Positions 29,891 to 32,296 of a stretch of DNA of 64,000 nucleotides are shown in pieces. This stretch comes from Escherichia phage pinkbiff. Each line of letters starts with the position of its first letter. Position 1 is the first letter of the stretch. The stretch is from the sequence record MN850603.1. The stretch is one strand, 5' to 3'. The translations under genes were made by a program, and so were the position numbers. The notes beneath the pieces were generated by a model. That model saw nothing but the letters and a program-made list of their open reading frames with translations. It was not told the DNA's origin and searched no databases.

Positions 29891-29988
29891 GTGAAAGAGG
29901 TCTGAAGTTGTGCCGCTAACTCAACTCCGTGGAATTTGTTACGGTCTTCAGTTGACACCAGCGGTCTTTCACTTGACCTCTGAATTGG

Positions 29989-30061
29989 TGCTCCCACAAG
30001 GATTCGAACCCTGATAAGTTGCTTACAAGGCAACCGTAATAGCCAATTATACGATAGGAGC
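29989..30061 (-). tRNA. tRNA-Thr (UGU)
   Basis: T-arm caagg-attcgaa-ccctg, perfect anticodon stem gttgc/gcaac, loop reading UGU, A73. Confidence 0.7.
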
Positions 30062-30071
30062 ATTAATTTGG

Positions 30072-30143
30072 AGCATCCAGAGGGAATCGAACCCTCAACC
30101 TCAGTTTGGAAGACTGTAATTTTCCCGTTTAAACTATGGATGC
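30072..30143 (-). tRNA. tRNA-Gly (UCC)
   Basis: acceptor gcatcca/tggatgc, T-arm gaggg-aatcgaa-ccctc, anticodon loop reading UCC, U73. Confidence 0.7.
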
Positions 30144-30152
30144 ACTAATTGG

Positions 30153-30225
30153 TGGAGAAGCAGGGAATTGAACCCTGTACTTAAGTTTGCAAAACTTATG
30201 TTTTAACCATGTAAACTACATCCCC
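30153..30225 (-). tRNA. tRNA-Ala (UGC)
   Basis: T-arm caggg-aattgaa-ccctg, perfect anticodon stem taagt/actta, loop UUUGCAA; acceptor stem contains the G3:U70 wobble pair that is the alanine identity element; A73. Confidence 0.75.
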
Positions 30226-30234
30226 AATGTCTGG

Positions 30235-30307
30235 TACAGGTGGAGGGAATTGAACCCGTCGTCTTACTGATTAAGAGTCAGCCGCATAACCATTTTGCTA
30301 CACCTGC
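30235..30307 (-). tRNA. tRNA-Lys (CUU)
   Basis: acceptor acaggtg/cacctgc, T-loop aattgaa (T-stem only 3 clean bp), anticodon loop CUCUUAA, A73; paralogous to tRNA at 31549..31621. Confidence 0.6.
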
Positions 30308-30317
30308 ATTAATTTGG

Positions 30318-30392
30318 TGGGAGACAAGGGATTCGAACCCTCAAACATCTCGTTCTAAGCGAGATAGGTTTACCAATTACCATCAATCTCCC
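30318..30392 (-). tRNA. tRNA with anticodon UAG (Leu-type), class-I length
   Basis: acceptor gggagac/atctccc, T-arm aaggg-attcgaa-ccctc, perfect anticodon stem tctcg/cgaga with loop CUUAGAA; 5-nt variable loop; A73. Confidence 0.6.
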
Positions 30393-30469
30393 ATTAAATC
30401 TTTTTAGAGAACTTCTAAGAACCTAAGCAACAAGGTTCCACAACAAGCTGTAATAACCTTAGAAGCCCT

Positions 30470-30495
30470 CTAAAAAGACCTAAAAAGGTCTTTGC
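30470..30495 (-). terminator. hairpin plus U-run inside tRNA island
   Basis: minus-strand AAGACC-loop-GGUCUU followed by UUUUUAG. Confidence 0.4.
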
Positions 30496-30649
30496 ATAGT
30501 CTTGTTTAATCCGGTGACTAGAACCTTTGGAGAGCTTGATATTATCTCTTCTCCGTGACACCTACTAGGTGTTTTATCAGTGTGTACGACAATACACGAG
30601 GGATACCAAAGCAACATCCGAATGAAGCTTGGCTTTAAATCTTATTAGG

Positions 30650-30737
30650 CGGTAAGTAAAGGAGTCGAACCCTCACCGTATCTCTACAGTGGCAACTGTT
30701 TTCAAGACAGTTTGGCTACCATTAGCCGCTACCTACC
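30650..30737 (-). tRNA. tRNA-Ser (UGA), long variable arm
   Basis: T-loop agtcgaa, perfect anticodon stem actgt/acagt with loop reading UGA, about 20-nt variable arm, 3-bp D-stem, G73. Confidence 0.65.
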
Positions 30738-30753
30738 CCTAATAAGACTTTGG

Positions 30754-30833
30754 CATGGGACGGAGGAGTTGAACCCCTTTGAAACGGTTTTGGAGGCCGT
30801 TGCTCATGCCTTAGAGTCTTAACATCGTCCCAT
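30754..30833 (-). tRNA. tRNA-like element (possible tRNA-Trp CCA; non-canonical D region)
   Basis: perfect 7-bp acceptor atgggac/gtcccat with encoded CCA and G73, T-arm ggagg-agttgaa-cccct, candidate anticodon loop CUCCAAA, but D region about 23 nt. Confidence 0.4.
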
Positions 30834-30978
30834 ACTATAATTCGAAGCTTACCGTATTATCTCAACACTGTAAAGCTCCTTCTCAGGTTATTTACATGTT
30901 CTGGAAACATGAGATACAGACCACCTCCCTACAGGAAGACCCGCTTAGGTCGTCTAAGTAATCTGCTAACTAATTGGC

Positions 30979-31052
30979 ACACCCTACAGGATTCGAACCT
31001 GTAACTCAATGATTAGAAGTCATTTGCTCTGTCCAGTTGAACTAAGGGTGCA
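30979..31052 (-). tRNA. tRNA-Arg (UCU)
   Basis: T-arm acagg-attcgaa-cctgt, perfect anticodon stem aatga/tcatt, loop reading UCU. Confidence 0.7.
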
Positions 31053-31343
31053 TTAATCTTTAAAGACTCTCTTAGAAAGCCCTTAAAGATGCCCACCTTA
31101 TTAATCATACCGTGGGCTAGTACGCCAAATTCTTTGATGAGGGATTGGAAGACCTCACTGGTGTTTAGCCTATCAAGCTACTGCCAGAAAAACATTGTCG
31201 TTTGCATTTATTTTAAATTTGCAAAATAGACGCTACGCAACGAAAACTATTCAGAATATGTACAACAAATTTCCCCACATTGTGTTACGTCTAACACTCA
31301 TGTATTGGTGTTTGAATTATACATATTATGAAGTATTTTAGTT

Positions 31344-31372
31344 ACTATAAAGTAGTCACATCTCAATGTCAA
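31344..31372 (-). promoter_or_regulatory. sigma70-like promoter inside tRNA island
   Basis: minus strand TTGACA-N17-TATAGT; would drive transcription toward tRNA-Arg (UCU) and downstream tRNAs. Confidence 0.45.
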
Positions 31373-31390
31373 CAACTTTATTGAAATTGG

Positions 31391-31463
31391 TACTGGTAGG
31401 TGGAATCGAACCACCGATGTTCCCTTATCAGGGGAGTGTTATAACCTTCTTAACTATACCAGC
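31391..31463 (-). tRNA. tRNA-Ile (GAU)
   Basis: T-arm ggtgg-aatcgaa-ccacc, anticodon loop reading GAU, D-arm gtta/taac, A73. Confidence 0.65.
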
Positions 31464-31467
31464 TTGG

Positions 31468-31541
31468 AGGTTCAGATGGGAATCGAACCCACATTCATAG
31501 GGTTTATGAGACCCTTGCATTACCTTATCTGCGACTGAACC
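31468..31541 (-). tRNA. tRNA-Met (CAU)
   Basis: perfect acceptor ggttcag/ctgaacc, T-arm atggg-aatcgaa-cccac, perfect anticodon stem agggt/accct with loop reading CAU. Confidence 0.65.
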
Positions 31542-31548
31542 ATATTGG

Positions 31549-31621
31549 TAGAAGTGGAGGGATTCGAACCCATCGCCTGTCAGATTAAAAGTCTGCCGCA
31601 TCACCATTCTGCTACACTTCC
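31549..31621 (-). tRNA. tRNA-Lys (UUU)
   Basis: sequence paralog of tRNA at 30235..30307; anticodon loop reading UUU; A73. Confidence 0.55.
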
Positions 31622-31625
31622 ATTA

Positions 31626-31770
31626 AATTATCTTTGTAGATAAGCTACCCAGACTTGCTTAAGGTCTGTAGCGATGTGCCTTTTTGGGTTTAAATCTAGA
31701 ATTTACCCTTTCACCCTTTGTGGTCGCATACTCACAGGTAAGCTTAATAACTTATCTACAAAGATAATTA
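31626..31770 (-). ncRNA. inverted-repeat-closed structured element (candidate small RNA)
   Basis: about 20-bp inverted repeat (AATTATCTTTGTAGATAAGCT at 31626-31646 vs AGCTTA..TTATCTACAAAGATAATT at 31741-31770) enclosing about 95 nt with an internal hairpin; no ORF support. Confidence 0.3.
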
Positions 31771-31774
31771 CCAG

Positions 31775-31901
31775 ACCGTTGTTTATCATCTTAAGTGCTA
31801 CCATTACACCAACTCGACCTCTGCCGAGTGAAGGAATCGAACCTTCTCCTTTTCTTTACCGAGAAATAGATTGTTTAAGTTTTGCTGTAAACGGTCTTCT
31901 G
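31775..31901 (-). ncRNA. stem-closed element with tRNA-like T-arm (candidate Y-RNA-like/tRNA-mimic RNA)
   Basis: arms ACCAGACCG (31775-31783) and CGGTCTTCTG (31892-31901) are complementary; interior has canonical T-arm gaagg-aatcgaa-ccttc (31830-31846) but no anticodon arm or matching acceptor. Confidence 0.3.
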
Positions 31902-31914
31902 TAAATTTGTTGAG

Positions 31915-31994
31915 CCAGACCAAGTTTTAAATTTTTTTCAAAATTGAATTGGCTTGAAAATATCATACGTACTTGCTGTATTTGGTCTTCTGCC
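31915..31994 (-). ncRNA. stem-closed spacer element, repeat family copy
   Basis: CCAGACCA (31915-31923) and TGGTCTTCTG (31985-31994) arms with TTGCTGTA motif. Confidence 0.25.
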
Positions 31995-32056
31995 CCTTTA
32001 AAGAATACTCGTAAGAACTCTTTAAGGGAGGGGCTAAATAGCCCTCTCAAAATTGG

Positions 32057-32131
32057 CGGTTACGAAGGGATTTGAACCCTCATCATCTCCCGTGACAGGG
32101 GAGTATTTTAACCAAATTAAACTACATAACC
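32057..32131 (-). tRNA. tRNA-Asp (GUC)
   Basis: T-arm aaggg-atttgaa-ccctc, perfect anticodon stem ctccc/gggag with loop reading GUC, G73. Confidence 0.7.
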
Positions 32132-32139
32132 TTTATTGG

Positions 32140-32224
32140 TGTGCCGTGTAGGAGTCGAACCTACCGAGTCTCAATGACAAGGGATTTACAGTCCCCACCG
32201 CTACCATCTACGGGATAACGACAC
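32140..32224 (-). tRNA. tRNA-Tyr (GUA), long variable arm
   Basis: acceptor gtgccgt/acgacac (one G-U), T-arm gtagg-agtcgaa-cctac, anticodon loop reading GUA, about 15-nt variable arm, 3-bp D-stem, A73. Confidence 0.65.
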
Positions 32225-32296
32225 ATTTAATTTCTATTCAGGCTAAGGACTTGCACCTTACAAATCGGTGAGCAATCGCTTCTCTCCTAAATTTGG

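Follow-up and report, generated by a model that had tools for sequence, protein, structure and literature searches.

The 64,000-nucleotide (nt) stretch of Escherichia phage pinkbiff analysed here (sequence record MN850603.1; hereafter the window) carries on its minus strand an array of 26 transfer RNA (tRNA) genes, just downstream of a gene for a Ro60-like protein. A first-pass annotation had flagged three segments of this region as bearing tRNA hallmarks without canonical folds, and had offered tRNA pseudogenes, tRNA-derived regulatory RNAs or tRNA mimics as explanations for all three. The flagged features all lie on the minus strand in spacers of the array, and the flagged region is 92-98% identical to Felix O1-like phages (Ounavirinae, Felixounavirus). 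The analysis bears out the observation and supports its interpretation in part: it is rather probable that the three segments differ in kind, being a non-canonical tRNA-Trp (segment 2), a tRNA-derived spacer RNA (segment 3) and a structured spacer (segment 1) related to a family of Y-RNA-like elements, R1-R4, which would themselves bind the Ro60-like protein. The features concerned are as follows.

27610..32782, minus strand: tRNA array of 26 canonical genes serving 19 amino acids (ARAGORN and Rfam RF00005).
29891..29985, minus strand: segment 1, the 95-nt spacer between tRNA-Thr and tRNA-Val (29891-29985), a multi-helix fold closed by AGAGGUC/GACCUCU.
30738-30974, minus strand: spacer between tRNA-Arg(tct) and tRNA-Ser(tga), holding segment 2.
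30751..30833, minus strand: segment 2, 83-nt candidate non-canonical tRNA-Trp(CCA) (alignment A1, pair counts, RNAalifold, allelic slot).
32225..32293, minus strand: segment 3, the 69-nt spacer between tRNA-Asn and tRNA-Tyr (32225-32293), putative tRNA-derived relic or small spacer RNA.
32948..34363, minus strand: Ro60-like protein gene, 471 amino acids, Pfam DUF2828 and DUF7788, PHROG 850 'RNA-binding protein', homolog of Bas63 gp130.

The Rfam tRNA model RF00005 confirms 24 of the 26 tRNA genes called by ARAGORN, and the 3' CCA is encoded, fully or nearly, in all 26. No canonical tRNA-Trp was called in the window by ARAGORN at default settings or by RF00005. Rfam, at both gathering and permissive thresholds, gave nothing beyond ordinary tRNAs, weak matches to transfer-messenger RNA (tmRNA), Dicty_Class_I and microRNA models being due to chance. 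In the related GenBank records inspected, the three flagged spacers are unannotated save for occasional short hypothetical open reading frames (ORFs).

For segment 2, reported earlier at 30754-30833, the perfect acceptor stem, CCA, T-arm, CCA anticodon and over-long D region were all recovered on the minus strand, with an extension to 30751 to take in the CCA. From 30833 to 30751 the segment reads AUGGGACG-AUGUUAAGA-CUC-UAAGGCAU-GAG-C-AACGG-CCUCCAAAA-CCGUU-UCAAA-GGGG-UUCAACU-CCUC-CGUCCCAU-GCCA. Its acceptor stem has 8 base pairs (bp), or 7 bp plus G8-C65, and is followed by an encoded G73-CCA 3' end; the D hairpin has 3-4 bp, a bulged A and a GG loop; the anticodon arm combines a 5-bp stem, including a C31.A39 mismatch, with a CUCCAAA loop; and the T-arm has a 4-bp stem and a UUCAACU loop. 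As in ordinary tRNAs, the acceptor and T stack amounts to 12 bp (8+4, or 7+5 with an A.C mismatch). The elbow-forming loops are also present, the D-loop GG and the T-loop UUC(A/G)A being invariant and the T-loop having 7 nt. The departure from the ordinary pattern lies in the connector between acceptor and D stems, AUGUUAA(GA) = GAUGUUAAGA, which counts 7-10 nt according to where the stems are taken to end; ordinary tRNAs have 2 nt there.

The proposed cloverleaf was assessed on an alignment (A1) of 13 distinct homologs from GenBank phages and IMG/VR contigs, representing Felixounavirus, Mooglevirus, Suspvirus and unclassified Pectobacterium and Yersinia Ounavirinae. Standard pairs occupy 99.6% of the 275 cells defined by its 22 pairs, and eight of these pairs have changed on both sides while remaining paired. 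No arm lacks covarying pairs: the acceptor stem has two (1-72 and 2-71), the D stem one (U-A/A-U), the anticodon stem four and the T stem one (G-C/U-A). For comparison, none of 500 shuffles reached the covariation score, and slid 3' partners paired at 33-53% without covariation. RNAalifold, used without the proposed structure as input, gave the identical four-helix cloverleaf. Positions U33-C34-C35-A36-A37, G73 and the CCA end are invariant in all 13 sequences.

The major identity elements for the tryptophanyl-tRNA synthetase (TrpRS) of E. coli are the CCA anticodon and G73, together with an A-U pair at 1-72; in segment 2 this last pair is A-U in 6 of the 13 sequences, G-U in 5 and G-C in 2. 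Segment 2 is the sole Trp-type tRNA in the array, and no canonical tRNA-Trp was called in the scanned stretches of the Yersinia, Pectobacterium, Michonne, Sl26 and PC79-13 phages. Comparison with the orthologous positions of relatives, where the first-pass annotation had suggested that an intact tRNA might be found, was decisive. In E. coli O157 typing phage 8 (wV8 type, L143) the spacer is collinear with that of the window up to ...GAATTATAGT, beyond which an annotated 71-nt tRNA-Trp(CCA), recognised by ARAGORN, and then an HNH endonuclease gene stand exactly at the place of the 83-nt element. This cassette of canonical tRNA-Trp and HNH gene occurs in 23 records, and the full spacer with the non-canonical form in 229. 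That the slot holds one Trp form or the other fits functional equivalence; the HNH-linked canonical allele is probably the invader.

Canonical tRNA-Trp(CCA) genes, such as the 71-nt gene of the wV8 type and O157 typing phage 8 and that of Erwinia phage EAP4, resemble segment 2 in cloverleaf, U33-CCA-A37, G73, encoded CCA, A1-U72 (or G-U/G-C), GG D-loop, UUCRA T-loop and C31.A39 mismatch, as well as in the slot between tRNA-Arg(tct) and tRNA-Ser(tga). The likeness extends to the anticodon arm, CGGC/CUGGC-CUCCAAA, of the EAP4 gene and of a normal-sized tRNA-Trp in contig L068. Segment 2 differs from them in its 7-10 connector nucleotides as against 2, its bulged 3-4-bp D stem, its length of 83 nt as against 71-76, and its scores below the ARAGORN and Rfam thresholds. 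It was annotated in none of the records sampled, and a literature search found no paper linking Felixounavirus to a tRNA-Trp. The 'tRNA-OTHER' annotations in REP11 and FSL SP-012 were considered and proved to be Arg and Ser genes.

Segment 2 is most likely a working non-canonical tRNA-Trp, neither a pseudogene, a regulatory RNA nor a mimic, and we would describe it as a tRNA with an expanded acceptor-D connector. It would be co-transcribed with its neighbours, whose spacing and encoded CCA end it shares, and excised by RNase P and 3' processing. The host TrpRS would then charge it through the CCA anticodon and G73 for the reading of UGG; the GG D-loop and UUCRA T-loop can form the tRNA elbow, and an 83-nt tRNA-Trp would enter the translation pool.

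Just 5' of this element, the stretch 30886-30961, which is 87-93% conserved in Felixounavirus and Suspvirus, contains a T-arm-like hairpin, CAUGU-UUCCAGA-ACAUG. A weak 'tRNA-Pro(agg)' call on the minus strand at the same place (ARAGORN -ps80) was rejected as unconvincing in view of acceptor-stem mismatches and a lack of covariation.

The first-pass annotation had overlooked the minus-strand array setting and, further upstream in the array, a family of four repeats with a T-arm (31832-31848) in one of them. The members are listed below.

32542..32613, minus strand: R1, short member filling the Glu-Met spacer, 335 nt downstream of the Ro60-like gene.
32384..32447, minus strand: R2, short member filling the Met-Asn spacer.
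31915..31992, minus strand: R3, short member, handle plus AU-rich insert.
31771..31901, minus strand: R4, Y RNA/YrlA-like RNA (covariation and RNAalifold).

All four begin with CAGAAGACC-NN-WUACAGCAA and end with NN-GGUCUGG, and share a handle composed of a stem and UACAGCAA. The NN pairs covary between copies, being GU/AC or AA/UU in 43 of 45 distinct elements, and the closing stems of R-type handles covary both between paralogs and between phages. R1 and R2 nearly fill their spacers, with 6-13 nt left on each side. In R4 the order from 5' to 3' is closing stem AGACCGUU/AACGGUCU, UACAGCAA motif, variable (V) hairpin, T-arm GAAGG-UUCGAUU-CCUUC (31832-31848), 7-bp acceptor-like hairpin ACUCGGC-AGAG-GUCGAGU, UG, and D-arm GUGU-AAUGGUA-GCAC. 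Its 23 pairs, examined across 14 orthologs, are formed in 99.1% of cases; three of them covary, all in the acceptor-like helix, and RNAalifold gives the same helices. The order V, T-arm, acceptor-like stem-loop (AS), D-arm amounts to a permuted tRNA-like domain with a terminal 5'/3' stem; the tRNA mimics foreseen by the first-pass annotation do exist in the flagged range, in R4 rather than in the segments it had singled out. In phage Michonne the corresponding hairpin, ACCCUUC-GCCA-AACA-GAAGGGU, includes an encoded discriminator and CCA, and its GCCA junction can be read as a relic of a tRNA junction.

As in permuted tRNA genes and two-piece tmRNA, the 3' half of R4 (T-arm, acceptor 3' strand) precedes the 5' half (acceptor 5' strand, D-arm). 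Unlike them, R4 has no anticodon arm, its ends form a stem resembling a protein handle, and there is no sign of circularisation or decoding.

The product of the gene upstream of R1-R4 gave an AlphaFold2 model with a pLDDT of 88 and a pTM of 0.88, whose top 10 Foldseek matches in the PDB are all full-length Ro60/TROVE structures (E 1e-8 to 1e-6, TMq up to 0.65). The predicted fold is accordingly that of a HEAT-repeat ring with a vWA domain. By sequence the relationship is more distant: Pfam TROVE gave no match, DUF2828 and DUF7788 being the only Pfam families found, and a profile search against the PDB matched Ro60 weakly (E 0.6-1). R1-R4 lie 0.3-1.2 kilobases (kb) downstream of this gene on the same strand, and they probably bind its product.

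This arrangement has several precedents. YrlA RNAs contain a V-T-AS-D tRNA-like module and are encoded on the same strand as a Ro60 ortholog, within 4 kb of it (PMC4201824). Like R4, YrlA (PMC4201824; RF02553) has a terminal 5'/3' stem, V, T-arm, acceptor-like stem-loop and D-arm, lies less than 4 kb from a Ro60-type gene on the same strand, and may be accompanied by shorter partner RNAs, as YrlB accompanies YrlA. The R family differs in its handle, an AGR-stem plus UACAGCAA ... YCUG in place of GNCGAAN0-1G, in being embedded in a tRNA array, and in its partner, a divergent DUF2828/DUF7788 Ro60-like protein rather than a Pfam TROVE member. In Thermus phage phiLo, a Ro60 with its Yrl1 and Yrl2 RNAs is proposed to act in counter-defence by recruiting host polynucleotide phosphorylase (PNPase) (PMC12135203; PDB 9KOP, 9L5Y). 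The phiLo protein is among the top structural matches here, and as in the window a phage Ro60-fold protein is found beside small stem-closed RNAs; the phiLo RNAs, however, have a CGAA motif and lie upstream of the gene, and neither a tRNA array nor a UACAGCAA handle has been reported for them. A further parallel is gp130 of the Felixounavirus Bas63, a homolog of the 471-residue window protein, which is reported to resemble Ro60 and to counter the ppl defence system, and is encoded directly upstream of tRNA genes (10.1101/2024.10.10.617714). The PhageMaP authors proposed that gp130 makes use of Y RNAs and speculated that these could be found among the annotated tRNAs, identifying none (10.1101/2024.10.10.617714); our candidates, in contrast, are the unannotated spacer elements R1-R4.

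Two points tell against a simple placing of R1-R4 among known Y RNAs. The GNCGAAN0-1G/CGAA motif of YrlA is absent from the family, and Rfam 15 contains no family, the YrlA model included, that matches R-type handle RNAs; RF02553 gave no match on the R spacer at E<=10, nor at gathering score on 12 other loci. Because they lack both the CGAA motif and a covariance-model match, we term R1-R4 Y-RNA-like and do not file them as YrlA, although they appear to be a variation on the Y RNA theme.

The handle was followed beyond this phage in 75 diverse IMG/VR DUF2828 loci, with proteins at 39-48% identity. A first scan that asked for 6-bp closure only was discarded, 40-50% of motifs being estimated to close by chance; since closure at 6 bp is so common, the length of helices anchored at the motif was adopted as the measure, with opposite-strand and shuffle controls. 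The gene strand has 77 copies of the motif TACAGCAA and the opposite strand 18, against an expectation of about 12 on each. Of the 77 gene-strand copies, 27 anchor a helix of 8 bp or more, compared with 1 of 18 on the opposite strand and 16 of 385 shuffled flanks. The anchored helices comprise 20 different stem sequences in 25 loci and, as read from coordinates, 26 of the 27 are no more than about 0.7 kb away from the gene. The resulting consensus is 5'-AGR-N4-5-(N)UACAGCAA ... N4-5-YCUG. Two unrelated large phages (L059 and L061; proteins about 50% identical) have handle elements directly after the gene with different closing stems and the same (N)UACAGCAA; their long forms contain the same T-AS-D module, and tRNA arrays then follow. 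In five IMG/VR loci (L069, L070, L074, L078 and L087) UACAGCAA handle RNAs instead carry a second type of insert, the conserved module GAACCUUUCUGGAGGGGAAAGCAAAAACUCGCC, with no tRNA-like domain, from which it follows that the handle carries exchangeable modules.

Other tRNA-like RNAs were encountered in the same loci. At 8563-8692 of L061 there is a non-permuted tRNA-like gene (GGUGAAU...AUUCACC-GCCA) with CUUCUUAGAGAAG-UUUUACAGCAUUC in the position of the anticodon arm, so that the handle motif appears to have been grafted into an otherwise ordinary tRNA frame. Beside the DUF2828 gene of L059, an unrelated 149-kb phage, ARAGORN calls a tRNA with a CUA anticodon (5231-5305, labelled Pyl), possibly an amber-suppressor tRNA. 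Erwinia phage EAP4 (L057, 4078-4265) and Yersinia phage P778 (L003, 2733-2850) each have an unannotated tRNA-like RNA that combines a T-arm with a perfect acceptor stem of 7-8 bp. In these an insert of 80-150 nt replaces the D and anticodon arms, and the Erwinia copy ends in GCCA; they may be tmRNA-like, intron-containing tRNAs or another Y-like RNA. Finally, in L003 (~1620-1800) and L051 (~1600-1790) a D-arm-like UGCU-CUAAAGGU-AGCG comes straight after a T-arm and is accompanied by the conserved tail GAGAAAAUAACACGAGGCGACAG; this further permuted tRNA-like module, common to the Yersinia and Pectobacterium phages, is without the UACAGCAA handle.

Turning to segment 1, the termini AGAGGTC/GACCTCT at 29896-29981 are exactly complementary and a T-loop is indeed missing, both as described in the first-pass annotation; the 4-bp stem noted there also stands (CCGT/ACGG), with a loop of 10 nt and not 8. 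No tRNA features of any kind were found in this segment. Its fold is stable on both strands (z = -2.96 and -2.74), and its copies in Mooglevirus and Suspvirus are 87-98% identical to it. A 9-mer, GAAGACCGU, is common to the interior of segment 1, R2 and R4, with four occurrences against 0.14 expected; it is followed by AACAAAU in segment 1 and by UUACAGCAAU in the R elements. The terminal stem, AGA-GGUC/GACC-UCU, fits the stem pattern of the R-family handle. We read segment 1 as a highly conserved structured spacer RNA, presumably a divergent offshoot of the R1-R4 family and no tRNA derivative.

Segment 3 is closed by a terminal stem of 7 bp that resembles an acceptor stem (AUUUAGG/CCUGAAU); it also has a small hairpin (AGC-GAUU-GCU) and the T-arm-like hairpin UAAGG-UGCAAGU-CCUUA that had been picked out at 32244-32260. 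The latter, with 5 bp and a 7-nt loop, differs by one base (U55 to G; 93% identity) from the T-arm of the neighbouring tRNA-Val (family D15). The fold is favoured on the minus strand (z = -2.64, compared with +0.30 on the plus strand). The segment is 93-94% identical in Mooglevirus and Suspvirus, the few substitutions falling in the loop of the small hairpin. Segment 3 is plausibly a tRNA-derived relic, perhaps persisting as a small RNA; processing of the flanking tRNAs would release it, and it would be dispensable in some relatives.

For the R elements, we envisage that transcription from promoter-like sites at 32929-32809 and 31372-31344 yields polycistronic precursors, from which RNase P and 3' tRNA processing would liberate the spacer RNAs. 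R1-R4 would then load onto the Ro60-like protein and, once loaded, could gate or tether it as in bacterial Ro60-Y RNA-PNPase complexes, or could act in counter-defence, a role suggested for gp130 and the phiLo Ro60. A more far-reaching proposal, which we consider possible if not quite probable, is that a widespread, undescribed Y-RNA-like family, defined by the 5'-AGR-stem-(N)UACAGCAA ... stem-YCUG handle with exchangeable inserts, some of them permuted tRNA-like, is carried in the tRNA array of Felix O1-type phages, provides the subunits of a ppl-countering DUF2828 Ro60-like protein and is freed by ordinary tRNA processing. Segments 1 and 3 would then be degenerate members or by-products, and the connector of the tRNA-Trp a second phage-specific recognition feature, for instance against a host tRNA nuclease.

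The assignment of segment 2 as a working tRNA-Trp has to face a number of adverse observations. At 31.39 there is C.A (C.C in the copies from Yersinia and Pectobacterium phages), and since this is never Watson-Crick the anticodon loop is formally 9 nt; the same copies require a bulged U in the acceptor stem. The segment is missed by ARAGORN at default and by Rfam at gathering thresholds, with no RF00005 match and a best score of 23 bits, to tRNA-Sec, against a gathering threshold of 47. ARAGORN with lowered thresholds and introns, a relaxed search of the kind proposed in the first-pass annotation, finds it only at -ps80, misfolded and with a wrong 4-nt anticodon. The two-nucleotide connector (positions 8-9) that by definition joins a 7-bp acceptor to a 4-bp D stem in tRNA is replaced by the longer one, which could disrupt the U8/A14 core, and we know of no functional bacterial or phage tRNA with an acceptor-D connector of 7-10 nt. 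The connector AUGUUAAGA is moreover invariant, save for one U-to-C in PC79-13, across genera whose stems have diverged, which hints at a further function or another one altogether. The two Trp alleles were seen to exclude each other over the whole record in three genomes, these being the three records that lack the non-canonical element and have a single matching place in the whole record, all of them among the 23 cassette records; elsewhere their exclusivity is supported by counts. The window, lastly, represents ~64 of roughly 87 kb of the genome, and a tRNA-Trp could conceivably be encoded in the remainder. A covariance model of segment 2 found no members outside the Felix O1-related clade in ~875 kb of other phage loci, and because nothing comparable turned up there we regard the design as confined to that clade.

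The long connector, the 9-nt loop, the rejection by standard tools, the bulged U and the invariance of the connector lead us to retain two other explanations of segment 2, neither of them likely. The better of these is that it is a tRNA mimic which retains the shape of a tRNA and an anticodon arm like that of tRNA-Trp, yet serves as the ligand of a phage protein that recognises AUGUUAAGA, or else as a decoy or as a protective substrate where, for instance, tRNA-Trp is attacked by a nuclease of the host. We think this unlikely, though it deserves a hearing: an invariant connector amid diverged stems suggests that something contacts it sequence-specifically, which ordinary tRNAs can do without; the segment is rejected by standard tRNA models; an RNA-binding Ro60-like protein is encoded 2 kb upstream; and at least one tRNA-nicking defence, retron Eco2, has the tRNA-Trp of the host among its substrates. 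The invariant U33, CCA, A37, G73 and CCA end are, however, requirements of decoding and charging, not all of which a decoy would need; the ordinary tRNA-Trp that fills the slot in 23 relatives argues for functional equivalence; and segment 2 is without the UACAGCAA handle of the Ro60-associated RNAs.

We consider it quite improbable that segments 1 and 3 (and perhaps segment 2 as well) represent neutral spacer or tRNA pseudogenes in decay, and owe their conservation to close kinship only. Such a reading would account for the want of compensatory changes in segments 1 and 3, in which the alignments have little to say: the 14 distinct orthologs of segment 1 have 95% mean column identity and no covariation, and at that identity the alignment is no evidence for or against the fold, while segment 3 varies too little for covariation to be informative. 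These points also detract from our own account of the two segments. In Pectobacterium and Erwinia phages the Thr and Val genes stand side by side with no segment 1 between them, and in phage Sl26, where 9 nt separate Asn from Tyr, segment 3 is missing; segment 3 has also lost U55 from its T-loop, a change of the kind that a pseudogene may show. Against decay, segments 1 and 3 retain 87-98% identity between genera, like the flanking tRNAs, compared with 16-55% for other array spacers, and their folds beat shuffles, that of segment 3 on the transcribed strand only. In the case of segment 2, compared over four or more lineages, the 99.6% pairing with eight covarying pairs excludes decay. This covariation, the tRNA-level conservation of segments 1 and 3 and the recurrence of the shared 9-mer are all more than chance would produce. 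Of the explanations put forward in the first-pass annotation, a tRNA derivation plausibly holds for segment 3, whereas segment 1 is not tRNA-like and segment 2 is most likely a functioning tRNA.

A recoding tRNA, in which the altered D region or 9-nt loop of segment 2 would let CCA read UGA or promote +1 frameshifting, is very unlikely: the altered part is exactly the D arm, where the Hirsh G24A change in E. coli tRNA-Trp is reportedly a classical UGA suppressor, and 31.39 is never Watson-Crick, but the C31.A39 mismatch is not special to segment 2, occurring in normal-sized phage tRNA-Trp genes such as the canonical one of the Kolesnikvirus Erwinia phage EAP4 (same CGGC-CUCCAAA-ACCG arm) and that of contig L068 (CUGGC-CUCCAAA type arm), and the canonical cassette replaces segment 2 in 23 phages without obvious penalty.

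The array contains further features. Promoter-like sites were located by a consensus scan (10-11 of 12 matches) and are consensus matches only.

32809..32929, minus strand: two promoter-like sites upstream of tRNA-Pro.
31344-31372, minus strand: third, internal promoter-like site.

The two sites 5' of tRNA-Pro are the likely start of transcription of the array. Long near-perfect hairpins lie on the minus strand directly 5' of tRNA-Lys(ttt), tRNA-Leu(tag) and tRNA-Arg(tct), at 31622-31770, 30393-30490 and 31052-31095 respectively; the first spans ~149 nt, with a stem of about 30 bp, and is 28-44% conserved between genera. Such hairpins might serve as processing sites of the RNase III type or be scars left by inserted mobile genes. 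A terminator-like AAAGACCUUUUUAGGUCUUUUU is found mid-array on the minus strand at ~30466-30490, in the Ser(tga)-Leu(tag) spacer, and the spacers 30393-30647, 31052-31387 and 31622-31770, which hold the long hairpins and the terminator-like site, have little covariation.

Protein genes are also interspersed. Those at 27784-28581 (DUF7217) and 28970-29527 (DUF7338), both on the minus strand inside the array, are conserved across Ounavirinae. A small ORF (MSNNSIAKKFRASYLNRRKNKVCEKLYGVLVGK...) on the minus strand at 29613-29747, between tRNA-Leu(caa) and tRNA-Arg(acg), has a strong Shine-Dalgarno sequence (GAGGAGAGCACC-ATG), extends into the tRNA-Arg gene and matches PHROG 13848 (E 1.4e-15); Michonne and Sl26 have a longer annotated coding sequence at this place, overlapping tRNA-Arg, in a spacer that is only ~16% conserved. 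HNH endonuclease genes occupy spacers that differ from relative to relative: Thr/Gly, Ser/Ile and Ile/Lys in Felix O1 (L002), Ser/Leu in Michonne (L004), and beside tRNA-Trp in the wV8 type. The tRNA genes themselves are mosaic among relatives, Thr for example being only 79% identical where its neighbours are near 100%. Scattered HNH genes and mosaic tRNAs together suggest homing-driven exchange of alleles in the array.

If segment 2 is the tRNA-Trp that we take it to be, more than 200 sequenced Felix O1-like phages, a group in use for typing and biocontrol of Salmonella and E. coli, encode one tRNA more than is annotated. It would complete the set of 20 amino acids with an architecture that breaks a rule of gene finders, and the alternation of canonical, HNH-linked and non-canonical alleles in one slot would constitute a natural experiment on the tolerance of the tRNA core. 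The R-type handle RNAs would add an uncatalogued RNA family to what is known of tRNA arrays, and the handle of R1-R4 offers concrete, mutable Y RNA candidates for a phage Ro60-like anti-defence protein, making the question of its partner directly testable.

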